Assembly (NCBI GenBank): GCA_018062885.1 | Contig: JAGORJ010000001.1 | Coordinates: 151-64,150 of the forward strand | Origin: Patescibacteria group bacterium | Lineage (GTDB): Bacteria; Patescibacteriota; Patescibacteriia; UBA1558; GWA2-36-10 | Length of the DNA: 64,000 bases | Reading direction: 5' to 3' | In this document: in pieces, positions 5,309 through 61,013 of the stretch | Layout of the letters: each line of letters opens with the position of its first letter | Numbering within the stretch: position 1 is the stretch's first letter | Program-made: the position numbers and the translations under genes | The notes under the pieces: model-generated | Database searches by the model: none | What the model was told of the DNA's origin: nothing | Seen by the model: the letters and a program-made list of their open reading frames with translations, nothing else

Positions 5309-5337
5309 TTGACAGAAAATGCATAATATGATATAAT
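5309..5337 (+). promoter_or_regulatory. Perfect-consensus sigma70-type promoter (TTGACA-N17-TATAAT) for the high-GC gene 5426-6802
   Basis: TTGACA at 5309-5314, 17-nt spacer, TATAAT at 5332-5337; GGAG RBS 8 nt before the ATG at 5426. Confidence 0.55.
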
Positions 5338-5425: not shown

Positions 5426-6802
5426 ATGGAAAATTGGTTTCATGAGAGTCTGCCACAGTGGTTCTGGGTCGCTTGGCCCTGGATCAAGGCAGCTTCTTTG
5501 CCTTTACTGGCAGCGTTCATGTTCTTGACCATGTTCTGGAAGTTTCCGTTCATCCAGAAGCGCAAGCAGACCATGTTCTGGGGCGTACTTGCTCTGGCAC
5601 TGGTCGCAACCTTGTGTTTACGCTTTTTTGTCTTTCAGCCTGAATCTTCGGGTACTGAAAAGCAAACCGGCGTGACCAATGTCGTCCAGCAAGATCAGCA
5701 AACTCAGATGATTCAGAAACAAGAAGAAAAGGACTCAGACAAGGTAAACTGGTGGCCATTCTTTGCGGTTTTGTTCGGTCTGAGTTTCGGCGGTGTGCTG
5801 ATGTACAGATCTTGGACCGGTAAAATCTGGCAAGATGTGGCGGTCAATAGTACCTATTGGCAGGGGGTTGTTTTCGGTGGGTTTTTTTTGATAGGATCCT
5901 TGATTATGGGTTTCTGGCCCAATCTCTTGCACATCTGGATTCCTCTCCTTGCCCTGTCTATCGCTGGGTCTGCGATGTATTCCGTGCCTATTCGCACTGG
6001 CTGGGTATTCACCGCTTTCAATGACCCTGTGTCCCACAAAGGCACTGGTTTACGCTGGTGGTTTCCATTGCTGTTACCATTCATTGGTATAATTCCTTTG
6101 AAAATAGAGTTTCGTGAACGAAACATCAAAAAAACAAAGGAGTTTTCCACTAGAGTGGACAGTGCGTCGACGCCCGGTCCTGGTCCCAAGAATACCAAGG
6201 GCGCGCAAGTCTCTTATGAGCTGCAATATTGGTATCTGGCGAACAAAAATCCAGAAGCCTATTTGGAGATGTCAGATGAAGATCGTGCGGATCTTGACAA
6301 GGCTATTGAGAGTTCCTTGCAAGGTTTCATGGCAGAGGCTACCCGAGTTTCTACCTTGGACGAGGCCATGGATTATCAAGTGGTCTTTCCTCCTTACGAG
6401 GTCAAGAAGTCAGCTGCGATCTGTGCAAAAGAAAGGAAAGATCCTCTGTATGCGAAGTGGTTTGCGTTGGTTGATTTGATCTTGCACCGTTGTGGTTCTG
6501 AGGTGGTGCACTTGAAGATCATTGATCGCGATGCAGACGCTGAAACCATGGAGCAGATGCGTCAGCTGGCACTGATGGCCTATAAGCTCAGTATGGCGCA
6601 GAAAGAAAAGGAGATCAAAAAAACACAAGGTCAAGCGGAAGGTGATCAGCTTTCTGCTACCATTGAGGCTTTGAAGAAGACTGGTTTGACTGCTGAGCAA
6701 GCTGCTACGCAGGCCTTCCAGCGCCTCACTTTGCCTGAGTTGAAGGGTGCGATCATTTCTTTGGGTGTTGATTCACCCGGCATCATGGTGAACAGGCCCT
6801 AA
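5426..6802 (+). CDS. Hypothetical polytopic membrane protein with Trp-rich N-terminus and about 200-aa soluble C-terminal domain; compositionally foreign (about 52% GC)
   Basis: 458 aa, at least 5 TM segments, Gly/Pro linker STPGPGPKNTKG, then helical domain; GGAG RBS; GC far above neighbours. Confidence 0.6.
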   Translation: MENWFHESLPQWFWVAWPWIKAASLPLLAAFMFLTMFWKFPFIQKRKQTMFWGVLALALVATLCLRFFVFQPESSGTEKQTGVTNVVQQDQQTQMIQKQEEKDSDKVNWWPFFAVLFGLSFGGVLMYRSWTGKIWQDVAVNSTYWQGVVFGGFFLIGSLIMGFWPNLLHIWIPLLALSIAGSAMYSVPIRTGWVFTAFNDPVSHKGTGLRWWFPLLLPFIGIIPLKIEFRERNIKKTKEFSTRVDSASTPGPGPKNTKGAQVSYELQYWYLANKNPEAYLEMSDEDRADLDKAIESSLQGFMAEATRVSTLDEAMDYQVVFPPYEVKKSAAICAKERKDPLYAKWFALVDLILHRCGSEVVHLKIIDRDADAETMEQMRQLALMAYKLSMAQKEKEIKKTQGQAEGDQLSATIEALKKTGLTAEQAATQAFQRLTLPELKGAIISLGVDSPGIMVNRP

Positions 6803-7437: not shown

Positions 7438-10400
7438 ATGGCGAATAAAAGAGATAGACGAGAAGGCGGGGAAGATCAAACTCCTGTACCAGAAGCAGAG
7501 GCTTCTTCTGCTCAATTAAGAGAATACGCTGAAACTACTGTAGCTGGTATGCGGCAAGCTCTTGAGGCTTTTAAACGTGCGGTTGAATTAGCGGCTAATA
7601 GCGCTTCTTTGATGGGAAAAGCAGAGAGATTATTTGCAAAAGCAGAACAGAAAATTAATGGTTTGGCTAGCACCATTCAAATAGATAATGTAAAAGATGG
7701 TTTTGTAGCTAACTTAAGTGGTTTAAAGGATAATGTGCTTGAAAATAATGAATCTAATAGAGATGAGTCTATTAATAATCCAGATGTACTTACTCTCAAA
7801 AAGTCTATTAGTGTTAATGAGGTATTAACAGAAGAAGAAAGAAATAATTTTTTAGGAGATATTAAACCAGACATGGATCAAGCTTCTTTAGAAGCGCTTG
7901 GTGCACGATTTTTTGTATTAGCACAAGAAAAATACAAAAATAAAATGCAGTCTTATTATGATAGCTTTATAAGTTCCAGGCCAACACTTAAAGATAGAGT
8001 CGCACAAACATTTATTAAATACAGCAGGGATTTATCAGTACAAACAACAGTTTTTGGTATGAGAAATATTTTTGCTCGTTTTGAAGAAGTGTTGCGAGAT
8101 TACTCTTCTGCTAGTCCATCCTCTCCAGATTCTCAGGAGTCAGGCAATAGCCTTCTGGCTCAAAAATTAACTCCAGACAATATTTTAGCTTCAGTTGAAA
8201 ACAATCAGCCTATTTATGTCAAAGTACATGTAGATGGTGGTGATTTGGAAACCGATTGGTTTGTTGAAAATATAAATATAGATACGCAAAAAGTTTTTGT
8301 TAGTAAAAAAAATGGGGATGATATTTCTAGTAAATGGTTTGATGTTGATGATTTACTCAAGTGGGATTTAGAAGTTGATGAATCTAATCATGGTGATACG
8401 CCTGAATCAGAGCCAAGTTCAGAAGATATCTCAAAAGAGAAAACGGAACTAATTAAAAAAGCGGCTGAGGAATTAGACGCTACCTCTGATTCTTTGAGAG
8501 CTGATGATTATGGTATTAATGCTGAAAAGGCAGCAGATTTAGTTAGTAGTAGTATTGAAAAAATTCAAAATCTTGACCATAATTTGACTATCAACGAATT
8601 AAATCAAGCCATTACAGAAATTAATAGTAGTTTAGATGTAAACTTGGAAGCATTAAAAGTTTCGTTAATAGACCCCAAAGAAGTTCCATCTGGCGCAGCA
8701 GAAGAGCCAGTAGAGACACCAGCCCCAGAAGATCCTGTCTTATCTACTGAACAAACTCCAGAGGTGCAACAAGAAAAATTAAAACTTGTTGATATCAAGC
8801 CAGAAAAAATTAAGGAGATTTTAGAAAGCGCTAATGTTGTTGCTCAGCTAAAAGATTTATTACTTCAAAAAGAAGGTGCTGGTTCAGCAGGCTTACAAGA
8901 AAGTATTGTTGAAGTTTTACAAAATTATTTTACCGAACAAAATTTAAATTTAAACTCAGAAGCACAGGAAAATTTGAAGGCAATGATTGAAAATCTAGCC
9001 GCAGAAACCTCTGAGCAAGTCACTCAAGCTTTTGCTAGCTCTTTGGAACAGCAGGCTAAAATTGATTCGGGTTGGTTTGATAAAGTCAAACAACATATGT
9101 CTGCTTTGATGGGTGCTAGATTAGCTACCACCTTTGCCATTGGTATTGGCGCAACTGCTTTAGCGCCAGTTATAGCTCCTATGTTAGGCATGGCAGCTGT
9201 TGGTTGGGGTACGGTTGGCCTTGCTGGTGGTATAGCGGGTTTAGGTAGATATTTTGGTAATAAAATTTTTACTAAATTTCAGAAGTCTGAAAAAAATATT
9301 AATAAATTAAAATCAAAAGAAGAAGAAAAAATAGAGCAAAGAAAAGCGGTTTTACTAGAAGAAAACTTTATAAATGTTGATTCTTTGGCAGCTGTAATGG
9401 CTAACACCTTAAGAACAAGCACTTCAGAAGATTTTCGTACTGGTCAAATCTTAGATAGTGAAGGTAATTTTTCTGAAGAAGTTGCTGAAACTTTGAAAGC
9501 AAATATTCAAAATTTACTGGATAATGATCCGCGTTATGTTGGTTTAAGTCCAGAGGAAAAAATACTAAAAGCAAAACAACTCTTTACTATTTTGTCCATG
9601 GAGCTTATTCAGCAAAGTAGAAATATTTTTGATTTAGATAAAGACAAAGAAGATCCTGCTATGATCAAAGCTATGCAAAAGTTGCAAAGTGTGTTGTCTG
9701 GAAAAATTGAAGGAATAGACAAACTAAATGTTGATAATGATTTTGCACAAGCAGGCGCAGCTGCTTTGGTGGGTGCTGGTTTAAGAGTTGCTTATACTCA
9801 CAGTGCACTTGCAGCTTCAGCAACTTCAGCTTTGTCTGGTGCTTTGATGGGCTGGTCTTTAGCTTCGGCTGAAGCAAAGCATTCTATGCAAGAACAATAT
9901 TATAAGGATGTTGAGGAAATCTTAGATTTAGGCGAGAGTATGCTTAGTGATGTCGTTTCTAATAAAAATTTTGAAAATAAAAATGGAGAGTGGAAGCAAA
10001 AAAAATACATAGATTTAGAAAATAAGGTTATTCCTGTAAAATCAATGCTATCTTTAAAGCTTGGTGATAATTATATTCTCACAGACCCGGTACTTCGAGC
10101 TAGGGCAGAAAATTTTATTCATCAATTTGGTCAATATAAAACTCTTGAGATGAAGATTGAGGGTACCCGTATTTATGATCTTGATCAAAATCAACTCTTA
10201 AAAAATTTACAGAAGAATATAAATTCAAAAAATGACCATTCTGTAGAAGAAATAGCTAGAAACCAAAAATGGGATCAGCGTTTTACTAACTTGTTTAGGT
10301 ATTCTGCTACACTCACTGGCGCAGCTATTGGTGGAATTATTGGTTTTGCCTCTGGAGGGTCAATGGAGTCAGCTGAAAATAACACAGGGTCTTCTGCTCA

Positions 10401-12327
10401 AGAAACAAATACTGCGGACTCTTTAAGTGTAGCTTCACAAGATTCTACAAAAGTTTCGGCAGATAGCTTGAAGCAGTTTACGGAAAATCCAGCAGATTCC
10501 ACAGCAACAGAAGCATCTGATGTTGTAAATAATGCAAATGTAACAGAAAATTCTGGTTCTGCTTCAGTGTCGGGAAATTCTCCGGATCAAGCTGCTACAA
10601 CTGTGATTGGTACACATGAAGTTATTACCACAAAGACCGGCACTTTAGAAAATGTTATTCGTACAGAAGATGGTATGCAAGGCAATGATTCTATCTGGCG
10701 TTCTACCAAAGATATAATCAAAAGTGACCCAGAAAAATTCGGCTACACCGGTGATCATGATGATCTTGGAGCTATCTCAAAATTTGCAGAAGCCAAAACT
10801 GCTAGTTTAGTGAATCAGCTTGAGCAAGCACAAGGTGGTGATTTAGCTGATTTGGTACATAATGGTGATAAGGTGATTGTAAGTTTTGAGGATGGTAAGC
10901 CCGTTTTAAGCTTTGAAGATAGTTCTGGTATAAAAGCTGGTCATTTGCCTGATTTTACAGCCAAGACAGAAATACCAAGTCCAGAAACGATAATGCCTGA
11001 AACACCTTTGGTTCCAGAAGCTCCAGTATTACCAGTGGTGAATGCAGACGAGTTCTTTGGTGGTAAAATTGCTTATTCTGCTGATTTATTTAAAGAAGTG
11101 GCTGATAAGCCAGAAATTTTGAATCAAGTGGCAGAAAAAGTTTTTGAAAATGGCTCGCCAGAAGTACAGAAACAATTTTTACATGATTTGTATCCAGATT
11201 CTTTTATGGATAATACAAATAAAGCATCAGTATTTTTGCACTATGTGGAAAATGCACCAGATATTAGTGTGAAAGATTTAGACAGCGTCAAAGATTTAGA
11301 TACCTGGGTAAATAATTTTGATGCACAAGCTAATAGTGATGATTTACCAGGCAAAAATTGGGAAGTTAGATTATTGACTGATGATAAAGGTAAGACATTT
11401 TATGCTATGGTGCATGAAAGTAAAAATCGTCTTTTTGCTCAAGATGAATTTGAAGTCAATAATCTCAGTGGTGAAATTTTCAAACTAAAAGAAAAGGTTT
11501 TAGAAAACTGGCTTCAAAATTCAGAAAACAATTTAGTGCCAGCAGCAGAAGAATTACCACCTACAACGACCGCACCTGAAACTCCAGTTGCTCCAATTGA
11601 GCCGATTATTGAAGCTCCAGATACCAATGCTAATGAAGCACAAGGATTATCTAGTGAAGATTCAGCTACATCAGAAAATATACCAAGTTCAGGTAGGGTG
11701 GATGATATCCGGTTAGAGGGTGGCCAAACTCTAAATTTTAATTATGATGAGTCTGGTAAGGTGACTGGGATTGGTCTGGGGGGTGAAATTTCTGGTGAGC
11801 CTGAAGTATTAAGAGGTGATTTTCGTGCTATTTTGAGAATGAAGCTTGGTAATCTTAGGCCAGGTGACATCAGTGTGGTGTCGCAAGTTGCTCGAAAAGT
11901 TGATTTACAAATGGATTTTTTGAATAATTTAGTAGAAAATGGTAAAGCTGATACTCCAGAAGCAGAGTTCTTGGCTGATAGAATCTTGAAAGATGTTGCT
12001 GAAGTCGAAAAGAAATATGGCGATGTGTTTAAAGACATTAAAACGGAGGCTGATGGTAAATTAAGTTTTGTGGAGACTGTTCCAGAAGCTGCGCCCACAG
12101 CGCCAATCGAGACTCCAGTTGAAGCTCCAATAGAAACAGAAATATCGACTGGTGGTGGCGCTAATTTTAAGATTTTATCTCAAATGCAGGAAAACGCTAA
12201 ATTCTATGACACACAGGATAATGTATTTACCAAAATAGACGGTAAAATATTTAGAGCCGATCCTTTTGGTGAAATGACTATTGAGGTGAGGGGTCAAAAA
12301 GATTTAGATAATTTATATCAAAAATAA
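7438..12327 (+). CDS. Giant (1629 aa) acidic low-complexity protein with internal glycine-zipper TM hairpins and PExP-rich linkers
   Basis: No signal peptide; about 12% Asp+Glu; hydrophobic Gly/Ala-rich segments (ATTFAIGIGATALAPVIAPMLGMAAVGWGTVGLAGGIAGLG; AGAAALVGAGL...SGALMGWSLA; LTGAAIGGIIGFASGG); repeated P-E-x-P/APIE motifs. Confidence 0.7.
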   Translation: MANKRDRREGGEDQTPVPEAEASSAQLREYAETTVAGMRQALEAFKRAVELAANSASLMGKAERLFAKAEQKINGLASTIQIDNVKDGFVANLSGLKDNVLENNESNRDESINNPDVLTLKKSISVNEVLTEEERNNFLGDIKPDMDQASLEALGARFFVLAQEKYKNKMQSYYDSFISSRPTLKDRVAQTFIKYSRDLSVQTTVFGMRNIFARFEEVLRDYSSASPSSPDSQESGNSLLAQKLTPDNILASVENNQPIYVKVHVDGGDLETDWFVENINIDTQKVFVSKKNGDDISSKWFDVDDLLKWDLEVDESNHGDTPESEPSSEDISKEKTELIKKAAEELDATSDSLRADDYGINAEKAADLVSSSIEKIQNLDHNLTINELNQAITEINSSLDVNLEALKVSLIDPKEVPSGAAEEPVETPAPEDPVLSTEQTPEVQQEKLKLVDIKPEKIKEILESANVVAQLKDLLLQKEGAGSAGLQESIVEVLQNYFTEQNLNLNSEAQENLKAMIENLAAETSEQVTQAFASSLEQQAKIDSGWFDKVKQHMSALMGARLATTFAIGIGATALAPVIAPMLGMAAVGWGTVGLAGGIAGLGRYFGNKIFTKFQKSEKNINKLKSKEEEKIEQRKAVLLEENFINVDSLAAVMANTLRTSTSEDFRTGQILDSEGNFSEEVAETLKANIQNLLDNDPRYVGLSPEEKILKAKQLFTILSMELIQQSRNIFDLDKDKEDPAMIKAMQKLQSVLSGKIEGIDKLNVDNDFAQAGAAALVGAGLRVAYTHSALAASATSALSGALMGWSLASAEAKHSMQEQYYKDVEEILDLGESMLSDVVSNKNFENKNGEWKQKKYIDLENKVIPVKSMLSLKLGDNYILTDPVLRARAENFIHQFGQYKTLEMKIEGTRIYDLDQNQLLKNLQKNINSKNDHSVEEIARNQKWDQRFTNLFRYSATLTGAAIGGIIGFASGGSMESAENNTGSSAQETNTADSLSVASQDSTKVSADSLKQFTENPADSTATEASDVVNNANVTENSGSASVSGNSPDQAATTVIGTHEVITTKTGTLENVIRTEDGMQGNDSIWRSTKDIIKSDPEKFGYTGDHDDLGAISKFAEAKTASLVNQLEQAQGGDLADLVHNGDKVIVSFEDGKPVLSFEDSSGIKAGHLPDFTAKTEIPSPETIMPETPLVPEAPVLPVVNADEFFGGKIAYSADLFKEVADKPEILNQVAEKVFENGSPEVQKQFLHDLYPDSFMDNTNKASVFLHYVENAPDISVKDLDSVKDLDTWVNNFDAQANSDDLPGKNWEVRLLTDDKGKTFYAMVHESKNRLFAQDEFEVNNLSGEIFKLKEKVLENWLQNSENNLVPAAEELPPTTTAPETPVAPIEPIIEAPDTNANEAQGLSSEDSATSENIPSSGRVDDIRLEGGQTLNFNYDESGKVTGIGLGGEISGEPEVLRGDFRAILRMKLGNLRPGDISVVSQVARKVDLQMDFLNNLVENGKADTPEAEFLADRILKDVAEVEKKYGDVFKDIKTEADGKLSFVETVPEAAPTAPIETPVEAPIETEISTGGGANFKILSQMQENAKFYDTQDNVFTKIDGKIFRADPFGEMTIEVRGQKDLDNLYQK

Positions 12328-12382: not shown

Positions 12383-12406
12383 GATTAAAGATAAATAAAA
12401 AAAGAA

Positions 12407-12436
12407 CCCGCCAAATCACTGCTGTGACTTGGCGGG
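12407..12436 (-). terminator. GC-rich terminator for minus-strand gene 12462-13394
   Basis: cccgccaa...ttggcggg stem; on the minus strand it is followed by TTTTTTTATTT. Confidence 0.55.
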
Positions 12437-12461
12437 CTTGCGCAATGCGCGACGGAAGGTT

Positions 12462-13394
12462 CTAGTGTCGGTGTGGGCGGGGCATGGCGCCGCGTTTGGA
12501 TTTCTCCTTTGCGGGCTGCTGCTCCGTTGTTGGTAAGGCGCTGAGTGAGATTTGCTCCGTGACGGGTTTTGGTACCGTCAAGGTTTGGATGAAGTCAAAG
12601 TACTGCACTACGCCGTGCTTGACTTTCATCTGCTCCCAGCGTTTGCCGCGAGTGGTGCTCAGTTGCTCATCGACGGCAGCGAGCCCGGTGTTTAGCAAGG
12701 TATTCATTGTGTCTTGCATACACCAGAGTTCGCTGTTTCTTGTTTCAGAGTTTATGAACTCACCGCGCCCGACGAATCCGTTCATGTCGATTGGCGTAGG
12801 CGTCCAGTCCTTGTTCTCCAAGACCTGGAGTCTCCCATCAAGCTCCTTGTCCTTCTCTTCCAGGGCCAGCAAGCGCTGGGCGTTGGGGGAGTTGGCCATG
12901 ATCTGGGCGATCATCGGCCGACTGTCTTGCTTGCTGTTGACGACTCGTTCAATCGCTCGACTCAATGAATCTACTTGGGCAGGAGTGTAGCCATTGACTG
13001 CAGTGTAGCCAGCAGATCCAAGAGCTGCATACATCGCACGACGTCCCATCCATTGGATATGGTTGGATTGCTGTGCGGCAGCGGTAGTAAACTTCGGGTA
13101 CCAGCATACCCGGTTGTCCTCGATCTTGCAGTCGCCCTTGTAATAGACTGTGTCCCCATTGGACACCTCAAATGTCAGGCGGTACTGCTTGATCGGCTGG
13201 CCCTTATTGTTCCATTTCACCAGCCATGGGGCCATCTCGGGCTTGGTTGGGGCCCAGCTGGCCATGGTGGCGGAGCTGTCGGGGTTGGTTTTGGTCAGGT
13301 TGCTGTCGTCGGCGTCTGCCTGGCTGATGTTGCTCGTGATGAGCGTCATGATGGCGATGAGAGCCATCCAAATGTACGAAGTGTGATTCTTCAT
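12462..13394 (-). CDS. Secreted protein of unknown function, high-GC (about 55%); probable start at second Met (MKNHTSYIW)
   Basis: ORF track gives 12462-13415; GGAAGGAAG RBS precedes the Met at 13394; signal peptide IWMALIAIMTLITSNISQADA; coiled-coil LLALEEKDKELDGRLQVLE. Confidence 0.6.
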   Translation of the reverse strand: MKNHTSYIWMALIAIMTLITSNISQADADDSNLTKTNPDSSATMASWAPTKPEMAPWLVKWNNKGQPIKQYRLTFEVSNGDTVYYKGDCKIEDNRVCWYPKFTTAAAQQSNHIQWMGRRAMYAALGSAGYTAVNGYTPAQVDSLSRAIERVVNSKQDSRPMIAQIMANSPNAQRLLALEEKDKELDGRLQVLENKDWTPTPIDMNGFVGRGEFINSETRNSELWCMQDTMNTLLNTGLAAVDEQLSTTRGKRWEQMKVKHGVVQYFDFIQTLTVPKPVTEQISLSALPTTEQQPAKEKSKRGAMPRPHRH

Positions 13395-13483
13395 GGGTCT
13401 TCCTTCCGTTCTCATATTTTTGGGCTAAAAGCCCGTTTGTGTAGGTGCGATTCGGCTAGAAACAGATTCTAGCTTGACTAAGT

Positions 13484-13512
13484 ATTATATACTATTTTAA
13501 AACATTTGTCAA
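13484..13512 (-). promoter_or_regulatory. Perfect-consensus TTGACA-N17-TATAAT promoter on minus strand driving 12462-13394
   Basis: rc of 13507-13512 is TTGACA, rc of 13484-13489 is TATAAT, 17-nt spacer. Confidence 0.5.
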
Positions 13513-13562
13513 GGATTTTTGGAACCGTCTAGTTTTGTTAGGCTTTTTGTAAAAATATAAGA

Positions 13563-13591
13563 TTGACAGATTTTGATTTTTAGTGTATGAT
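13563..13591 (+). promoter_or_regulatory. Near-consensus TTGACA-N17-TATGAT promoter driving 13682-14680
   Basis: TTGACA 13563-13568, 17-nt spacer, TATGAT 13586-13591; divergent from the preceding promoter. Confidence 0.5.
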
Positions 13592-13681
13592 AATAAATCA
13601 AACAATTTTGCCTTACAAGGCATTTGTTTGCTCGATCTTCGACAAAATCATCACACAAAAAGCATATCAATGGGGGAAAGC

Positions 13682-14680
13682 ATGAAAAACGCGATGTTGG
13701 GACTCATTTTTGGCCTTTTGGCCATGCTCCAGTTCGCTTCGGCAGCTGAAAAGGTGGGAACGTCTTTTCTTAATCGTTCTGATCTTGAGGTTTGGGGCAC
13801 CAGTCAGTTGGTTACCACTTTCGAGGGAGACAGTCTGGCGAGAAACAAATGGTCCTATGCTATTTTTGGTGCCGAGCTCTGGATCAACGGCCGTCAGTCC
13901 TTGGATGTCTTCTCGATCAAGGCTGAAGGACAGCTGGCCTATGGCATCAAGGCCGAGAATCTGCTGACAGAGGCTTTTGCTCAGCAAGATTGGCGTCAGG
14001 CTTCAGGTCTGGGTGCCAGTTTTCGAGCTGGACAGTACCAGCATTTGAGCAGGGCAAACTTCGCTCTTCCGCATGAAGCTGCTCTGCCTCGTCGGATGGA
14101 CGTGGAAGTGCCCTTTACCGAGAATCTCTCGGGCGGAGCATTTTCCGCCTACTGGGATCAACAGGATACGCTCAAGATTCCTGCTGGTTTCAAAATGAGC
14201 TGGGGCTTTGGTAAGTCCAGGCCGATGCCACAGCAGAGCTGGGACACGCTATTAGTAGCGTTTCCGGAACCGCGGTGGAGCTGGGGAGCTGCATACCACA
14301 TCACAGGGTATTTTGGGGCCACAGAGCTCCATCTGGGCTGGGAAAAGGAAGTGGGGCACAATGCTTCGCTTTATATTGCCCCCCATGTAAATGTGGACTT
14401 GGGCTTGAGCTGGACCTACAGTTTTCACCCACACTCCGAAATTGCGCCGGACAATCTCTACGCAGCCAAGCTCAGCTGGAGATTCTGGCAGTCGCAAACC
14501 GAGAAGCACAGCTTCTCGGTGGTCAGTGGCCTGGATTTCGGAGACCAAACCGAAGCCTTGCAAGCCTTGTTGGGCTATCAGTGGAAGCTGCCCATCGAAG
14601 GTTTCGTGAAGCTTCAGGCGGGTTATGATGGTCGCTATGAGCAGCCGGTGGTTGCTCTGCGTTACTATCTGAGACTGTGA
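13682..14680 (+). CDS. Secreted beta-strand-rich protein, outer-membrane beta-barrel-like, high-GC (about 57%); start at internal Met (MKNAMLGLIF)
   Basis: ORF track 13583-14680; GGGGGAAAG RBS before the ATG at 13682; signal peptide LAMLQFASAAEK; alternating hydrophobic/polar strands through the C-terminus (LSWRFW, SFSVVSGLDFG, LLGYQWKL, VVALRYYLRL). Confidence 0.55.
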   Translation: MKNAMLGLIFGLLAMLQFASAAEKVGTSFLNRSDLEVWGTSQLVTTFEGDSLARNKWSYAIFGAELWINGRQSLDVFSIKAEGQLAYGIKAENLLTEAFAQQDWRQASGLGASFRAGQYQHLSRANFALPHEAALPRRMDVEVPFTENLSGGAFSAYWDQQDTLKIPAGFKMSWGFGKSRPMPQQSWDTLLVAFPEPRWSWGAAYHITGYFGATELHLGWEKEVGHNASLYIAPHVNVDLGLSWTYSFHPHSEIAPDNLYAAKLSWRFWQSQTEKHSFSVVSGLDFGDQTEALQALLGYQWKLPIEGFVKLQAGYDGRYEQPVVALRYYLRL

Positions 14681-25974: not shown

Positions 25975-26574
25975 TTAAACAAATTTTCTTAAAACTGCCC
26001 TGACAATGCCTTGAATAGCTGGATTTTTGGCATAAATAGGCTTCATGGTGTGATTGGCTGGCTGTAGGCGAATACGGTTTTCTTCTCTAAAGTATTTTTT
26101 TAAGGTGGCATAAGTATTATCTAGCAAAGCGACGACTACATCGCCATTGCGAGGATAAAAGTTTCTTTCCACAATCACATAGTCACCATCCAAAATACCC
26201 TCTTCAATCATTGATTCACCTTTGACTTTGAGGACATAGCTGTTCTCATCACGCACAAAGCTTTGTGGGACAGCGATAGACTCATTTTCTTGGATAGCCT
26301 CAATTGGCTCACCGGCAGTGATAAGGCCCACCAGGGGCAGCTCAATGGCTTTGCCGAAGCGTTGAGTGACGACTTCGAGTGAGCGAGCGGCATTGTGGTT
26401 GCTCGTTATCAGGCCTTTGTCTTCTAGGGCCTTGATGTGCTCATGCACAGTGGCAGTAGAGGACAGTCCAAAATAGTCGGCGATTTCTCGGTAGCTAGGA
26501 GCGTAGTCATTGGTTTGAATAAATTGGGTGACAAAGTCCAAGATTTCTTTTTGTTTTTTTGTTAAGTTAGACAT
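25975..26574 (-). CDS. lexA: LexA repressor (S24 peptidase)
   Basis: Winged-HTH N-terminus; Ala-Gly cleavage site (ITAGEPIEA); Ser/Lys dyad (VKGESM...K). Confidence 0.85.
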   Translation of the reverse strand: MSNLTKKQKEILDFVTQFIQTNDYAPSYREIADYFGLSSTATVHEHIKALEDKGLITSNHNAARSLEVVTQRFGKAIELPLVGLITAGEPIEAIQENESIAVPQSFVRDENSYVLKVKGESMIEEGILDGDYVIVERNFYPRNGDVVVALLDNTYATLKKYFREENRIRLQPANHTMKPIYAKNPAIQGIVRAVLRKFV

Positions 26575-33455: not shown

Positions 33456-34088
33456 ATGAATGAACATGAAAAACAATTTCATTTACCAGATTCAGGATTT
33501 GATAAAGTGTTAGGAAATATCACAAAAGCTCCTGAAGTGAAAAAAGAAAAAAGACTTATAACTTACGAAGAATCCTTAGAGTTAGCGAAAGATTTATTGA
33601 ATAGACATAAAAATGAAATACTTGGTCAAAAAGACAAAGATGTTGATGGCTGGGGCACTCCATATACTGATCATCAAAAATCCATACGCCATTTTATAGA
33701 CAAAACGCCGCAAGACATTTTAGAACGTTTTGTTGGGCATGGAATCACCAAAAAAGGTGAAATAGACCGACTAGCTGCTGCTTTAAATATACTAGCAAAT
33801 AAATCAATCCAAGGTTCTTGTGGACAACTCGCTGGAAATATCGGGGGTTATAACGCTTATAAAGATGGTGATTTCATTGTTATCTCAAAATTAGATACTA
33901 ATTTCCGAATAATGCAAGAACTTGATGGTAGGCTCCAGCCAGAGTTGAATGAAATTGGATTATTAGTAAACATTGGAGCTTTTGTGGTGGATACTAAATA
34001 CTACTCAATGGTAGAAGAATTAAAAACAATGTTTCCGGATGTTAATATAATTAAGGCAAATGAGTTGCCCGAATATTTAAAAGTTTAA
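33456..34088 (+). CDS. Hypothetical protein
   Basis: 210-aa ORF with native codon usage; no recognised motif. Confidence 0.45.
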   Translation: MNEHEKQFHLPDSGFDKVLGNITKAPEVKKEKRLITYEESLELAKDLLNRHKNEILGQKDKDVDGWGTPYTDHQKSIRHFIDKTPQDILERFVGHGITKKGEIDRLAAALNILANKSIQGSCGQLAGNIGGYNAYKDGDFIVISKLDTNFRIMQELDGRLQPELNEIGLLVNIGAFVVDTKYYSMVEELKTMFPDVNIIKANELPEYLKV

Positions 34089-34211: not shown

Positions 34212-34565
34212 TCAGGGCTCAGTGATTTCCAAGCAGAAGCCAGGTGCTTTAGAGAGGTAATGTTCTTCTTTGTTTATATCAATAAAAGGTGTTCTCCAGA
34301 TGTTACCTCCTTGCCATGTACGCAGAATATAGGTTTCATCTTGACGGAAATATTCATTGAGCGTTCTGGTGATCAAGATTATGATCCGATCACCTTCTGG
34401 ATTCACATTTTGCACGCAGGCTTTTGCCGCGAAATCATTTTGTTGGCCGTATTTGTCCAAGTCCATGATTCGCACTGTGTCGCCAATCTCAAAGATTGCT
34501 TTGATTGTTTTCACGATTTTTTCCTCAGTTTTGTGGAAAGTCCAATTATTTTTTGATATTAGCAA
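34212..34565 (-). CDS. Hypothetical small protein (TTG start per ORF track; ATG alternative at Met34)
   Basis: Hydrophilic, well-composed 117-aa ORF; GC about 41%; dedicated hairpin plus T-run terminator at about 34150-34185 on the minus strand; the overlapping plus-strand ORF 34101-34556 looks spurious (Cys/Phe/His rich). Confidence 0.4.
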   Translation of the reverse strand: MLISKNNWTFHKTEEKIVKTIKAIFEIGDTVRIMDLDKYGQQNDFAAKACVQNVNPEGDRIIILITRTLNEYFRQDETYILRTWQGGNIWRTPFIDINKEEHYLSKAPGFCLEITEP

Positions 34566-34663: not shown

Positions 34664-36277
34664 ATGCAAAATACAAAATTCATTTTTATCACTGGTGGTG
34701 TTTGTTCTGGTCTTGGTAAAGGCATTGCTTCCGCTTCTATTGGCGCTATTTTAGGCTCCTGTGGTTACAAAGTTTTTACCCTCAAGCTTGATCCTTATCT
34801 AAACATCGATCCCGGTACCATGAGTCCTTATCAGCACGGTGAAGTCTATGTGACGGATGATGGCGCAGAAACTGATCTGGATCTCGGGCATTATGAAAGA
34901 TTTATTGACACCAATTTATCCAAGCTATCTAATCTCACTACTGGCCGAGTATATGCTAAAGTTTTGAAAGGCGAGCGCAGTGGTGATTATTTGGGTAAGA
35001 CTATCCAGATCATTCCCCATATTACCAATGAAATAAAAGCACATATCAGAAAGGCAGCCGAAGAATCAAAGGCTGACTTTTTGTTGATAGAGATCGGTGG
35101 TACTGTCGGAGACATTGAGGGTGAGCCTTATTTAGAGGCTGCTAGGCAGTTTCATCGCGAAGTTGGTGCCAATCATGCTTTGTTTGTGCATTTGACCTTG
35201 TTGCCCTTTTTGACAGCTTCAGGCGAGCTCAAGACTAAGCCAACTCAAGCTTCTGTGCGTGAGCTTTATCGTCGTGGTATTCAGCCAGATATTATCTTGG
35301 CAAGAAGTGATAAGCCGATAGACAAAGAGAGCATCCAAAAAATTGCCTTATTTGCTGATGTTGAGGAAAGAGCGGTCATACCAGCGCCGACTGTCAGCAC
35401 TATTTATGAAGTACCGATTAATTTTGAAAAAAAACATCACATTTCTACGATTATTTTTGAGCATTTCCAAATGCCAACAAAAAAAGCAAAATTGGAAGAG
35501 TGGGAGAAGCTAGTCAATCGTATCAAAGCCAATCACCGCCAAAAAATCGAGATTGCTTTAGTAGGAAAGTATAACCAAAACTTAGATGCTTACTTAAGTG
35601 TCGTAGAGGCTTTGAAGTCTGCTTGTTATTTTAATAACTTAAGTTTAAATCTAGTTTGGATAAATGCCACTAATTTGGAAAAAGATGATAAGTCAGAATG
35701 GGAGAAATTAAAAAAATGCAAAGGTATCGTAGTGCCAGGAGGATTTGGCTCTCGGGGGGTAGAAGGTAAGATCATGGCGGCAAAATATGCTCGTGAACAT
35801 AAAATTCCGTATTTAGGCTTATGCCTTGGTATGCAAGTAGCGACTATTGAGTTTGCAAGATTCGTTTTAAATACTACTGACGTAAACTCGACCGAGTTTA
35901 ATCCAAAAACAAAAAATCCAGTCATTCATATTTTACCTGGACATCATGCAGAGGAAAGTAAGGGTGGTACTTTGAGGCTTGGTTCTTATCCTTGTGTGCT
36001 AGACAAAGATTCTTTGAGTTTCAAAGCTTATGCTCAAAACAAAATAGACGAAAGACATCGTCATCGCTATGAGTTTAATATGGACTATAAAGAGGTCTTA
36101 GAAAAAGCTGGTATGCGTCTAGCAGGACTTTCGCCAGATAAAAAATTAGTAGAAATAATAGAGCTCAAAAATCATCCATTTTTTGTAGCCAGCCAGTTTC
36201 ACCCAGAGTTTAAATCCAGACCATTGAGAGCGCATCCCTTGTTTAGAGATTTCATCAAAGCAAGTAATAAAATTTAG
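34664..36277 (+). CDS. pyrG: CTP synthase
   Basis: FITGGVCSGLGKGIASASIGAILG, DLDLGHYERF, glutamine amidotransferase GLCLGMQ and HPEF. Confidence 0.95.
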   Translation: MQNTKFIFITGGVCSGLGKGIASASIGAILGSCGYKVFTLKLDPYLNIDPGTMSPYQHGEVYVTDDGAETDLDLGHYERFIDTNLSKLSNLTTGRVYAKVLKGERSGDYLGKTIQIIPHITNEIKAHIRKAAEESKADFLLIEIGGTVGDIEGEPYLEAARQFHREVGANHALFVHLTLLPFLTASGELKTKPTQASVRELYRRGIQPDIILARSDKPIDKESIQKIALFADVEERAVIPAPTVSTIYEVPINFEKKHHISTIIFEHFQMPTKKAKLEEWEKLVNRIKANHRQKIEIALVGKYNQNLDAYLSVVEALKSACYFNNLSLNLVWINATNLEKDDKSEWEKLKKCKGIVVPGGFGSRGVEGKIMAAKYAREHKIPYLGLCLGMQVATIEFARFVLNTTDVNSTEFNPKTKNPVIHILPGHHAEESKGGTLRLGSYPCVLDKDSLSFKAYAQNKIDERHRHRYEFNMDYKEVLEKAGMRLAGLSPDKKLVEIIELKNHPFFVASQFHPEFKSRPLRAHPLFRDFIKASNKI

Positions 36278-36282
36278 TCAAA

Positions 36283-36316
36283 GAAAAAAGGGGCGTCCGT
36301 TGGGCGCCCCTTTTGA
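36283..36316. terminator. Bidirectional GC-rich terminator between pyrG (+) and 36336-36761 (-)
   Basis: ggggcg-tccgttgg-cgcccc hairpin flanked by A-run and TTTT. Confidence 0.6.
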
Positions 36317-36335
36317 GTTTGTGTGCCGTTGTTGG

Positions 36336-36761
36336 CTATGCCTTAAGCTTATGCAACAAGAACATAGCGATGGAAAATGCTGGCTTTTCCATCACCCCCG
36401 CATACATGAAGCTTGGGCCTTCCTTGAGACAAACAAATTCCTCCTGGTCATGCAATCTGTTTATCACTGAAAGATGTATCTCTCTTTCGTAAATCGTATC
36501 GCGTCCCGGGTTCACATCGAGTGTGATAATAGAGTGCTCGCCCAGAAGCGTTTGAATGGGATGCCCGGTAGCTAAGGCGACGATTTTCATTAACAACCCC
36601 TGTACATGACTGTGGTCTGCTACGTGCAAACGAAAGGTGGTCACAGTGGAGTTGGCGTGGTACTTGCCTTCTGAGTTTAGCTCAGAAAGAACGCCGTAAA
36701 AGGTAATGGTGTGTGCCATGATACTCATCCTCCTCGTTTCATGGTATGTCTTGAAGAGCAT
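36336..36761 (-). CDS. Hypothetical small protein, higher-GC (about 47%); probable true start at MAHTITF (36719) 9 nt after AGGAGG
   Basis: ORF track start 36761; perfect AGGAGG SD sits 9 nt before the in-frame ATG at 36719; no recognised domain. Confidence 0.5.
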   Translation of the reverse strand: MLFKTYHETRRMSIMAHTITFYGVLSELNSEGKYHANSTVTTFRLHVADHSHVQGLLMKIVALATGHPIQTLLGEHSIITLDVNPGRDTIYEREIHLSVINRLHDQEEFVCLKEGPSFMYAGVMEKPAFSIAMFLLHKLKA

Positions 36762-36786
36762 ATCAGCACTTGCTGATAATCGTATT

Positions 36787-36815
36787 ATAATAGAATATAT
36801 ATGCTATTTTGTCAA
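36787..36815 (-). promoter_or_regulatory. Strong TTGACA-N17-TATTAT promoter (minus strand) for 36336-36761
   Basis: rc of 36810-36815 is TTGACA; rc of 36787-36792 is TATTAT; 17-nt spacer. Confidence 0.45.
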
Positions 36816-36909
36816 GTATGGTGCTTATCTATTTTTGTATCTAAATAATCCAATCTATGCTATAATACTTGAATAAACATAGACTATTTATTAATCTAAA
36901 TATAATTTT

Positions 36910-37674
36910 ATGGAAATGGAAAAAGAAGCATGTTGTACAAATAAACCCTACAAGTTTATTTTCAAAATGACAGGCATAGTGTTGATTGCGGCGGTCTTAA
37001 TCGTTGCTTTGGTGCGTGATCGCATCGTCAGCAATCCAAACTGGCAAGTATCAGTGACTGGTCAGGGCAAAGTAGCTTATACACCAGATGTTGCTAAAAT
37101 AAACTTTGGTGTGCAAGTAGACAAAGCAGCTAGTGCTGAAATAGCTTTGAATACTTTAAATAGCAATATAGAAAAAGTCATGAAAGCTTTAACTGATTTG
37201 GGTATTGAACAAAAAAATATCAGCACCCAAAACTATTCTCTATATCCACAGTATGACTATATCGATGGTGTTTCTAAACCATCTGGCTATAGTGCTAGCG
37301 AGCAAGTGACAGTCAAGATAGAAAAGTTTGCTGAAAAAGATAACTTGATTGGCAGAGCGATAGCAGAGGTGACTAAAGCTGGCGTCAATAATATCAGTGG
37401 TATTAGTTTTGAGGCAGCTGACATTGAAGTTTTAAAAAATGAAGCAAGACTTAAAGCAGTCGAAGACGCTAAGATAAAAGCCAAAGAAATGTCTAAAAGC
37501 ACTGGTGTGCGTTTAGGTAAAGTGATTGGCTGGTGGGAAAATTATTATCCAGTTGATCCATATATGGACGGTAAAGGTGGCGCTTTGATGAACGAAAGTT
37601 TATCATCAGCCTCAGTGCCAAGTAGTCAATACGAAGTTTCAGTGGAAGTTAATCTGAATTATAAAGTTAAATAA
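36910..37674 (+). CDS. SIMPL-domain (DUF541, YggE-like) protein
   Basis: N-terminal TM, then SVTGQGKVAYTPDVAKINFGVQ...NYSLYPQYDY matches the SIMPL family. Confidence 0.8.
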   Translation: MEMEKEACCTNKPYKFIFKMTGIVLIAAVLIVALVRDRIVSNPNWQVSVTGQGKVAYTPDVAKINFGVQVDKAASAEIALNTLNSNIEKVMKALTDLGIEQKNISTQNYSLYPQYDYIDGVSKPSGYSASEQVTVKIEKFAEKDNLIGRAIAEVTKAGVNNISGISFEAADIEVLKNEARLKAVEDAKIKAKEMSKSTGVRLGKVIGWWENYYPVDPYMDGKGGALMNESLSSASVPSSQYEVSVEVNLNYKVK

Positions 37675-47100: not shown

Positions 47101-47198
47101 TGCAGTAGAATTAAACTTGCTTTATTTGTCAAGATGTGTTATTATAGGGCTTAACTTATTAAACAAGATCCGCACTAAGCGGACTAAACAATAAATTT

Positions 47199-59960: not shown

Positions 59961-61013
59961 ATGTTTAAAAAACTGTTCCGACAATTTTCTAAAGACATGG
60001 GTATTGACCTGGGTACGGCCAATACCTTGGTTTATGTTAAGGATCAAGGCATCGTGATCAATGAACCTAGTGTGGTAGCTATCAACACTCGCAATGATAA
60101 AATAGTAGCTGTGGGTGAAGATGCAAAAATCATGATGGGAAAAACTCCAGCTCATATCAACGTCATTAGACCTTTGGTTGATGGTGTGATTTCTGACTTT
60201 GAGGTGACGGAAAAAATGATTAAACATTTTATTGAAAAAGTTCACCGCGAGTCCATGACTTTTGTGCCTAGACCTAGAGTGATGATCGCTATTCCCCTTG
60301 ATGTGACTGAGGTAGAGCGCAAGGCGGTAGAAGACGCTGTCTTGGGCGCTGGTGCGTCTGAGGTTTTATTGATTGAAGAGCCGGTTGCGGCCGCTATTGG
60401 CGCTGGTCTGCCCATTTTGGAGGCTACAGCGAGCATGGTGGTGGATATCGGTGGCGGTACTACTGAGATTGCAGTGATTTCTTTGGGTGGAGTGGTTTCA
60501 TGGAAATCTTTGAAGCTGGCTGGTGACAAATTAAATGAAGCTATTATCCAATACGCTCGAGATAAATTTAATATTTTACTGGGAGAAAGAACCGCTGAAA
60601 GAATCAAAATCCAAATTGCTTCAGTTTTGCCTTTTGACAAGCCGATAGAAACTACGATGCGTGGACGTGATCTTTTGACTGGTTTACCAAAAGAAATAAG
60701 AATCACTGATGCAAATATCAGAGAGGCGATTGCAAAACCGATTAAGCTTATCGTTGACAACATTAAAACTACTATTGAAAGTACACCGCCAGAACTTGTA
60801 TCTGATTTATACGAAAGAGGTTTGATTTTGACTGGTGGCGGAGCTTTGCTCAAAGGTTTGGATCAACTGATCGCTCAAGAAGTCAAAATGCCAGTGCATA
60901 TTGCTGATGATCCACTGACGGCTGTAGTGCGTGGCACTGGTAAAATTTTGGATGATTTAGATAATTTGCGCGAAATATTATTACCATCTACAAAAGATAT
61001 TGGTTTTAATTAA
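59961..61013 (+). CDS. mreB: Rod-shape determining actin homolog MreB
   Basis: DMGIDLGTANTLVYVKDQGIV, DIGGGTTEIAV, LTGGGALLKGLD. Confidence 0.95.
   Translation: MFKKLFRQFSKDMGIDLGTANTLVYVKDQGIVINEPSVVAINTRNDKIVAVGEDAKIMMGKTPAHINVIRPLVDGVISDFEVTEKMIKHFIEKVHRESMTFVPRPRVMIAIPLDVTEVERKAVEDAVLGAGASEVLLIEEPVAAAIGAGLPILEATASMVVDIGGGTTEIAVISLGGVVSWKSLKLAGDKLNEAIIQYARDKFNILLGERTAERIKIQIASVLPFDKPIETTMRGRDLLTGLPKEIRITDANIREAIAKPIKLIVDNIKTTIESTPPELVSDLYERGLILTGGGALLKGLDQLIAQEVKMPVHIADDPLTAVVRGTGKILDDLDNLREILLPSTKDIGFN

Follow-up and report, generated by a model that had tools for sequence, protein, structure and literature searches.

How did a small, GC-rich gene without evident relatives come to stand alone between two genes that are nearly contiguous in a related genome, and what does it carry with it? 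The gene lies in a 64,000-nucleotide stretch of Patescibacteria DNA (GenBank assembly GCA_018062885.1, contig JAGORJ010000001.1, positions 151 to 64,150), hereafter the window, whose positions serve as coordinates throughout. It is annotated at NCBI as KBC40_00190 of "Patescibacteria group bacterium" and is encoded on the minus strand between the plus-strand genes pyrG and SIMPL. We refer to it as the orphan gene and, together with its expression signals, as the orphan unit. The orphan protein belongs to a new and rare family, and the gene is preceded by a short leader that is conserved far better than the protein that follows it. The explanation that we favor, and consider somewhat probable, is that a self-contained one-gene unit was acquired horizontally, resembling a phage moron and bringing a leader that would control the stability and translation of its mRNA. 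The features of the locus, spanning 36283-36909 and the neighboring genes, are as follows.

34664-36277, plus strand: pyrG (CTP synthase); its stop codon ends at 36277.
36278..36850, minus strand: the inserted unit, ~570 bp; the right boundary is approximate.
36286-36314, both strands: GC-rich intrinsic terminator with a 13-pair stem, 8 of its pairs being G-C, flanked by an A-run and, on the opposite side, a T-run.
36336..36719, minus strand: orphan coding sequence, 127 amino acids, with the stop codon at 36338-36336.
36729..36735, minus strand: Shine-Dalgarno (SD) sequence GAGGAGG, with AGGAGG at 36734-36729, exactly 9 nt upstream of ATG 36719.
36787..36815, minus strand: sigma-70-type promoter TTGACA-17-TATTAT, with 11/12 consensus matches in a consensus scan.
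36910-37674, plus strand: SIMPL/DUF541 gene, the downstream neighbor; the spacer between pyrG and SIMPL is 632 bp in the window.

The promoter (36787-36815) and the bidirectional terminator had both been proposed in an initial annotation made from the sequence, and both were recovered here. Transcription is predicted to start at about 36780. The terminator begins 22 nt past the orphan stop codon and 9 nt past the pyrG stop codon, and on the minus strand its stem is followed by TTTTTTCTTT; it is therefore predicted to be able to end the transcripts of both the orphan gene and pyrG. Independently assembled contigs from other samples (L001, L002, and L006) are identical to the window across the unit. 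Thus, the unit is not an assembly artifact or a chimera.

Three relatives of the host (L007, L008, and L009) were recovered through their pyrG genes, which encode proteins 77 to 83% identical to that of the window. In L009 (pyrG 81% identical), the order rplI-pyrG-SIMPL is found with a pyrG-SIMPL spacer of 50 bp, which holds only a SIMPL promoter of the TGCTATAAT type; in the window, ATGCTATAATA is retained ahead of SIMPL, at 36857-36867. Searching L007, L008, and L009 by tblastn with all 27 proteins of the family described below returned no match. Because the L009 spacer is 50 bp long and lacks such a gene, the orphan unit is, judged by gene order, an insertion, and it is very probably a horizontally acquired, autonomous unit. 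A 19-nt imperfect direct repeat (36829-36847 and 36884-36902; CTATTTTTGTATCTAAATA / CTATTTATTAATCTAAATA), with copies 55 nt apart, is present in the AT-rich spacer between the orphan promoter and SIMPL. As a target-site duplication it was rejected, being only marginal against chance (scores as high arose in 13 of 500 shuffles), and it may represent either a remnant of the insertion or AT-rich noise. No further flanking repeats were found around the unit.

Two more open reading frames (ORFs) without a Pfam family lie between rplI and pyrG in the window, at 33456-34088 (plus strand, 210 amino acids) and 34212-34565 (minus strand, 117 amino acids). In all three relatives rplI adjoins pyrG directly, and tblastn with either extra ORF finds nothing in them. 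At least two separate insertions have therefore occurred in the rplI-pyrG-SIMPL stretch. The parcubacterial relative L008 (pyrG 77% identical) has high-GC ORFs of its own a few hundred bases past pyrG (8180-8884 and 10092-10504), and its high-GC ORFs include a lipoprotein-like one of 171 amino acids. In this group, the stretch after pyrG may repeatedly receive foreign DNA.

The composition of the orphan gene is foreign. The GC content of 36336-36761, which the initial annotation had put at about 47%, is 0.467 and exceeds the window mean of 0.367 by two standard deviations (standard deviation, 0.051 in 426-nt segments). Only 4.75% of such segments reach this value, and they fall in five places: the two larger GC-rich cassettes of the window (5426-6802 and 12462-14680), lexA, mreB, and the orphan locus. 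The GC content at third codon positions (GC3) is 0.56 in the orphan gene versus 0.32 ± 0.09 across 50 host ORFs. A log-likelihood ratio of synonymous codon usage, contrasting a cassette model with a host model, yields +0.187 per codon for the orphan gene and −0.25 ± 0.085 for equally sized host chunks, with 0 of 107 chunks reaching the orphan score. High GC3 as a signature of strong expression was ruled out: the genes of ribosomal proteins L27 and L9 have GC3 values of 0.22 and 0.27, so high GC3 is not a marker of expression in this genome. The departure extends to noncoding DNA, where the terminator part is 53% GC and the spacer toward SIMPL is 19% GC; the ORF and terminator form a compositional island flanked by spacer of 19 to 22% GC. 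The initial annotation had viewed the gene as an acquired cassette and had set a k-mer and synteny comparison in advance as the test of that view. Codon usage lies outside the range of 107/107 host chunks and the synteny of the ORF is not kept in L009, and the claim of acquisition survived.

A word-indexed search with the orphan protein matched only the protein itself. When 1.84 billion cluster representatives were scanned exhaustively with HMMER, three small relatives of 121 to 137 amino acids emerged, and two rounds of profile searching expanded these to a family of 27 clusters (118 to 151 amino acids), a rarity of about 27 clusters among 5.8 billion. In the alignment of the 27 sequences, identity to the window protein is 20 to 32%. 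The ORF at 36336-36761 (minus strand) encodes 141 amino acids counted from its first ATG and 127 from ATG 36719, which the initial annotation had preferred for its position 9 nt after AGGAGG. All 27 members begin with M-A-x-x-T-x-Y/F-G at the equivalent ATG, and this common N terminus indicates that ATG 36719 is the true start. The family motifs FRLH, IYERELH, and LKEGPRF appear in the window protein as FRLH, IYEREIH, and LKEGPSF, following the N terminus MAHTITFYG; M1, T6, R30, Y77, R79, E80, E100, G101, and F120 are invariant. The close pair L111/L118 differs by 21 synonymous and 13 nonsynonymous codon changes, an excess of synonymous changes that purifying selection would lead one to expect.

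None of the 27 members matched Pfam, PHROGs, or PADLOC (best single-member expect values [E] of 0.04 for Pfam and 0.049 for PHROGs, with no hit at all in PADLOC), and the window protein, tested against NCBIfam, had no match. Comparison of the window protein and the family profile to sequences in the PDB yielded nothing significant, the sole match being a cystatin chain (E = 0.21). Thus, the earlier statement that the protein has no recognizable family is accurate for curated libraries but misses some 27 uncurated, distant relatives, and the family is a new and rare one. Its proteins, of ~125 amino acids, are soluble and near neutral (median isoelectric point, 6.9; net charge, 0), with no signal peptide or membrane segment evident in the alignment. 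AlphaFold2 with the 27-sequence alignment produced a model with a mean predicted local distance difference test score (pLDDT) of 83.4, a predicted template modeling score of 0.78, and the topology beta-beta-alpha-beta5-alpha; from the single sequence, the pLDDT was 39 and the model was unusable. A search for structural neighbors of the model found none, and no known RNA-binding fold; the ribosome hibernation factors HPF/RaiA and other small alpha/beta sandwiches bear a weak resemblance to it. The orphan protein probably binds a ligand or a nucleic acid, or is a small enzyme built around an Arg/His/Glu/Tyr patch, as its conserved residues suggest. The window protein is histidine rich, with 10 of its 127 residues being histidine, compared to a family median of 5.

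The genes adjacent to the family members differ at every locus. They include pyrG/SIMPL, the RNase P RNA gene, RNase H, alaS, an ArsR-type helix-turn-helix (HTH) gene, a Gp49/HTH pair, and a PycTM variable region, among others, and no homology was found among the neighbors of different loci. A conserved neighbor or a two-gene module was rejected on these grounds. Only two hosts carry names, a Candidatus Zambryskibacteria bacterium and a Patescibacteria group bacterium. Searches of 50,697 phage records, IMG/VR, PHROGs, and plasmid records revealed no relatives apart from one chance match (E = 0.3), and a pattern scan of metagenomes returned 14 loci, three of which contain true family members and the rest chance matches in high-GC coding regions. 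The GC3 of the family genes stays between 0.38 and 0.67 while that of neighboring genes spans 0.19 to 0.72: it is above the host value in low-GC hosts (L088 and the window, 0.2 to 0.3) and below it in high-GC hosts (L090 and L095, 0.64 to 0.72), and in L117 it equals that of the host. The relatives' genes have TTGACA-type promoters and terminators consisting of a GC-rich hairpin and a T-run. Considering the varied neighbors and hosts together with these signals, the gene moves, or has moved, between differing hosts as a complete expression unit.

Some relatives are found in variable, defense-like neighborhoods. P0026 lies near a PycTM protein, an S24 peptidase, and ParB-like and type IV secretion system-like genes, and P0024 (L117, 3528-4132) adjoins a Gp49 (HigB-like) and HTH pair. 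At two loci (L096, 890-1263; L099, 3-385), a class A RNase P RNA gene (~220 bits) is located directly upstream and is divergently transcribed. In L118 (795-3014) and L111 (1210-3009), the family gene resides within a three-gene, high-GC islet, where it follows an ORF of 461 amino acids (GC3 0.58) and precedes one of 82 amino acids that has its own SD sequence (GC3 0.66); host genes there have a GC3 of ~0.38 to 0.41. The family gene can therefore also travel within a larger island.

The most conserved part of the unit is the leader that precedes the gene. DNA of relatives was compared at 13 loci, and 12 leaders were aligned and used to build a covariance model, R1. The leader is nearly the same in the DNA of all 13 relatives even though the proteins have diverged to ~30% identity, with values of 25 to 35%; its consensus is GCCAUGCAAUGAGGAGGAUGAGUGUC-AUGGC, and the window version is ACCAUGAAACGAGGAGGAUGAGUAUC-AUGGC. 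It comprises the following elements.

Between the promoter and ATG 36719, minus strand: the leader, ~60 nt, with two hairpins, P1 and P2.
36761..36778, minus strand: hairpin P1, UAUCAGC/GCUGAUA with an AAGU loop, located where the transcript is predicted to begin; present in the consensus and window folds.
36716..36744, minus strand: hairpin P2, CCAUGA (36744-36739) / UCAUGG (36721-36716); present in the window and consensus folds.
36711..36778, minus strand: the whole leader motif as matched by R1 (63.3 bits; E = 3e-15).

The two hairpins are conserved in different ways. P2 has the consensus stem GCCAUG/CAUGGC, which places the start codon in the 3′ arm, and a loop of 17 to 19 nt with an invariant AYGAGGAGGAYGAG. 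In the window, the 17-nt loop (36738-36722) holds the SD sequence, and the AUG (36719-36717) lies within the 3′ arm. The loop core, A-Y-GAGGAGGA-Y-GAG (36738-36724 in the window), includes the SD sequence, which is unpaired in all predicted folds, and varies among the 12 aligned leaders at two U/C sites only, such that 15 positions are either invariant or U/C. Nucleotide conservation breaks off precisely where the P2 3′ arm ends, the third position of the Ala-2 codon being free to vary. In P1 (36778-36772 paired with 36767-36761), the sequence varies while the pairing is kept, with five of the seven pairs changed on both sides and no conservation of the loop sequence. P1 begins 7 to 9 nt past the −10 hexamer in the window, L087, and L107, and TTGACA/TTGTCA promoters lie at the same distance from P1 in the relatives.

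The pairing was evaluated over the alignment as a whole. In total, 91.7% of the cells in paired columns can pair, compared to 22 to 55% when the partners are slid by one to three columns, and 13 cells with double changes were observed versus 3.4 ± 1.6 in shuffles. In P2, 97% of cells are paired; one double change, from G-C to A-U, occurs in L090 and L097, and L117 has one U.G pair. RNAalifold predicted both helices from the untrimmed alignment, with double changes in six pairs, and the G.U pairs are compatible with the sense strand only. When R1 was searched against the 64-kb window, a single match was obtained, at the orphan unit; the next-best candidate, at 47124-47185 (15 bits), lacks the SD core. 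Each of the relatives' loci has one match, in every case immediately before the family gene, and no further match was detected in the ~195 kb searched. Among the relatives without the gene, L007 and L009 have no match at E ≤ 1, and L008 has only a 16-bit match (E = 0.068). Among the 4,227 families of Rfam 15, none matched the leader (at E ≤ 1 across nine loci and at E ≤ 10 in the window locus), and the weak matches fell on the terminator only. The comparison of aligned sequences thus demonstrates that the leader is conserved, covaries, and is linked exclusively to this gene family, and it is likely to be a functional RNA element that acts on stability, translation, or both. An upstream mini-ORF in the 5′ arm of P2 (36739-36744 in the window), taking the form AUG-NNN-UGA or, where UGA became CGA, AUG-NNN-CGA-GGA-GGA-UGA, was dismissed as a probable by-product of the CCAUG arm; it lacks an SD sequence and occurs in no more than 9 of the 12 leaders.

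These observations suggest how the unit might work. The acquired DNA would bring its own promoter, structured leader, strong ribosome-binding site, 127-codon reading frame, and terminator. P1, at the extreme 5′ end, would most likely protect the mRNA from 5′-end-dependent decay. The ribosome would load on the SD sequence exposed in the P2 loop, and initiation would require the 6-bp stem to be opened, such that a factor binding the loop and stem would block initiation and make P2 a translational operator. That factor may be the encoded protein itself, an arrangement that would amount to autogenous control. Because the 15 invariant or U/C loop positions exceed the needs of a ribosome-binding site, an operator bound by a specific factor is favored, and it is quite conceivable, if short of probable, that P2 binds a repressor as an operator instead of acting as a pure enhancer. 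The obvious choice for the effector is the encoded protein because leader and protein were never found apart; that it acts in this role is nevertheless rather doubtful. A stronger version, in which hairpin and protein are a cognate pair forming a mobile, self-regulating module and the new-fold protein recognizes A-Y-GAGGAGGA-Y-GAG at its own start, is unlikely. Were it true, a small mobile translational modulator would be circulating among ultra-small Patescibacteria, and since the loop approximates an idealized ribosome-binding site, the protein might also act on other mRNAs with SD sequences or compete with the ribosome.

Several points weigh against the explanation as a whole. The near-neutral charge of the family is atypical of RNA-binding repressors. 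In our own alignment, UGAGGAGG(A)UGA could form 11 pairs and one bulge with the canonical 16S 3′ tail, 5′-UCACCUCCUUA-3′; the loop could thus reflect extended pairing with the 16S tail, in which case no repressor would be needed. A double change in P2 is seen in one pair only, in 2 of 12 sequences, and the folding energies of P2 are near those of shuffled controls (z scores of −0.7 to −3.1). The 5′ ends of P1 in alignment A5 were chosen by eye, which favors pairing, although the untrimmed alignment gives the same helices. Finally, a single informative relative, L009, lacks the insert, which leaves loss in the L009 lineage as a formal alternative.

The chief competitor to a regulatory leader is a portable module for high expression without regulation, in which P1 stabilizes the 5′ end and the P2 loop presents a long SD sequence. 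The near-consensus promoter, the perfect SD sequence at 9-nt spacing and free of pairing, and hosts that span a wide GC range all agree with it, and the possible 11-pair match to the 16S tail might explain part of the invariance; if the tail of this organism, whose 16S gene is outside the window, is complementary to UGAGGAGGAUGA, such a "super-SD" would gain favor. A generic strong SD sequence would, however, tolerate substitutions, whereas here 15 loop positions are fixed or U/C in genes whose proteins have changed at ~70% of residues. The start codon is held in a conserved stem, maintained by a double change, at a cost in initiation efficiency, and the leader precedes no other gene in the window or at the relatives' loci. 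We therefore regard an unregulated module as possible but not likely. The conserved DNA could instead encode an antisense hydrophobic peptide (M-T-L-I-L-L-I-A-W...) in the manner of a type I toxin, because a hydrophobic plus-strand ORF of 52 to 56 amino acids spans the leader in the window and the invariant core reads as hydrophobic in antisense. In L090 and L097, however, ATG has become ATA, removing the start at 2 of 13 loci; the ORF ranges from 8 to 52 amino acids with no conservation beyond nine residues; and on the antisense strand, the G.U pairs of both helices would turn into A.C mismatches. This interpretation is exceedingly improbable, and a type I toxin-antitoxin system was rejected, given that the start codon is not kept and nothing is conserved past the reverse complement of the leader.

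The origin of the unit allows similar alternatives. The gene could be native and vertically inherited, with loss in the L009 lineage and a high GC content imposed by the family; consistent with this, family GC3 is near 0.5 whatever the host and could be a constraint, one syntenic relative was compared, and the gene of L117 has the composition of its host. The differing neighborhoods, the extreme rarity (~27 clusters among 5.8 billion), the absence from the pyrG loci of three relatives, and the island of ORF and terminator bounded by spacer of 19 to 22% GC render vertical inheritance quite improbable. The initial annotation had gone further and suggested a common origin or mechanism for the orphan unit and the larger cassettes at 5426-6802 and 12462-14680. 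All have GC3 values of 0.55 to 0.70 with positive cassette-like codon scores, all have promoters with 11 to 12 of 12 matches, and no cassette protein has a Pfam family above the curated cutoff. The likeness in organization thus holds for GC3, near-consensus promoter, and terminator, but these features are generic: the host promoters of rpmA and tRNA-Gln are equally strong, and the compositional likeness is one of direction of GC bias (GC3 of 0.70 in the second cassette versus 0.56 in the orphan gene). Nothing specific was found in common, the leader motif occurring once in the window, at the orphan unit, and no shared repeats or junction sequences being found, which leaves the suggestion unsupported in its stated form and makes one donor or mechanism improbable. 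As to the protein, HMMER matches to the tandem acyl carrier protein (ACP) repeats of polyunsaturated fatty acid synthases (P0002, P0005, and P0007; E values from 3e-8 to 9e-4) raised the reading that it is a degenerate ACP domain, residues 39 to 81 of the window protein being identical to each single repeat at 15 of 43 positions. The score, however, sums four to six repeats of ~26 bits each and falls on the least conserved segment of the family, and no other member shows the likeness. The position of the phosphopantetheine serine is a Thr (GRDTIYE), the model is rich in beta strands rather than a four-helix bundle, and there is no Pfam PP-binding match. An ACP identity, which has next to no probability, was rejected as repeat-summed chance similarity that the family alignment and the model contradict.

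The favored explanation, an acquired one-gene unit with a controlling leader, has partial parallels in known systems. Phage morons are independent transcription units inserted between neighboring genes (Cumby, Davidson and Maxwell 2012, PMC3594210). Like a moron, the orphan is a single gene between two others that adjoin each other in a relative (separated by 50 bp in L009 and by 632 bp in the window), has its own promoter and factor-independent terminator (predicted, the promoter from a consensus scan), and deviates from its neighbors in composition (GC of 0.47 versus 0.37; GC3 of 0.56 versus 0.32). Unlike a moron, it is outside any phage or prophage, its neighbors being rplI, pyrG, SIMPL, and a band-7 gene, and it carries a family-specific leader, which is outside the moron concept. 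The orphan unit shows three of the four moron features; it works like a moron but is not one.

Hairpins that act as translational operators at initiation regions are known from the MS2 coat-protein operator and from the autoregulatory leaders of ribosomal proteins and of T4 RegA and gp32. P2 is likewise short, includes the start codon and SD sequence, is conserved beyond what a ribosome-binding site demands, and belongs to one gene family, but its SD sequence is in the loop and not sequestered, and the proteins are near neutral with no known RNA-binding fold. P1 resembles the 5′-terminal stabilizer stem-loops of bacterial mRNAs such as ompA and ermC in having 6 to 12 bp, in lying a few nucleotides from the predicted transcription start, and in being free in sequence while keeping its pairing. 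The leader as a whole is similar to orphan cis-regulatory motifs of the Rfam type, with conserved sequence and covarying helices upstream of one gene family, although it is very small, has conserved sequence in P2 alone, and belongs to no catalogued family. Toward a riboswitch, it offers a hairpin of ~31 nt with a conserved loop, and the P1 loop varies. Hundreds of genomic islands and individually transferred genes have been reported in Patescibacteria, most of the individual transfers being between Patescibacteria, with competence proposed as the route of uptake (PMC12455944). The orphan unit fits this frequent gene exchange but, unlike the islands of that study, is a single-gene islet of ~570 bp that has no mobility genes and has its own expression signals across hosts.

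The locus is a minimal example of acquisition, in which ~570 bp bring a promoter, leader, ribosome-binding site, and terminator. The genomes of Patescibacteria are tiny, functionally uncharacterized genes make up a large part of them, and new genes are believed to arrive chiefly through DNA uptake. Two new objects emerge, a rare protein family with a confidently predicted fold unlike anything solved and a compact leader that is almost unchanged while the protein has changed at ~70% of its residues. Such conservation usually marks a specific RNA-protein or RNA-ligand interaction, and through the leader, experiments could approach what this otherwise opaque gene does. Should the leader prove to be a portable expression or autoregulatory module, it could be useful for gene expression in uncultivated lineages. 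The significance is tempered by precedent: horizontally transferred orphan islets and gene-specific structured 5′ leaders are both already known, and orphan motifs and domains of unknown function are common finds.

The remaining observations concern the wider window. Promoter-like sites with at least 11/12 consensus matches number 10 in the whole window, compared to 1.8 ± 1.7 in first-order Markov random sequences. Four precede high-GC genes, and others precede rpmA (25807-25779) and tRNA-Gln (41370-41342); near-consensus sigma-70 promoters appear to be used for strongly expressed genes in this Patescibacteria genome. The larger cassettes have promoters with 12/12 matches at 5309-5337 (plus strand) and 13512-13484 (minus strand) and with 11/12 matches at 13563-13591, and a 15-pair terminator is located at 12438-12405 in the region of the second (12405-14680). 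Their three proteins (458, 317, and 365 amino acids) have no Pfam family above the curated cutoff, and the 365-amino-acid protein has a signal-peptide-like N terminus. Besides the cassettes and the orphan locus, only 25975-26574 and 59961-61013 reach 47% GC. The former is a lexA-type repressor gene (LexA_DNA_bind and Peptidase_S24) with a GC3 of 0.445 and the most cassette-like codon usage among host genes, and the latter is an mreB-like gene, assigned by eye from the ORF translation.

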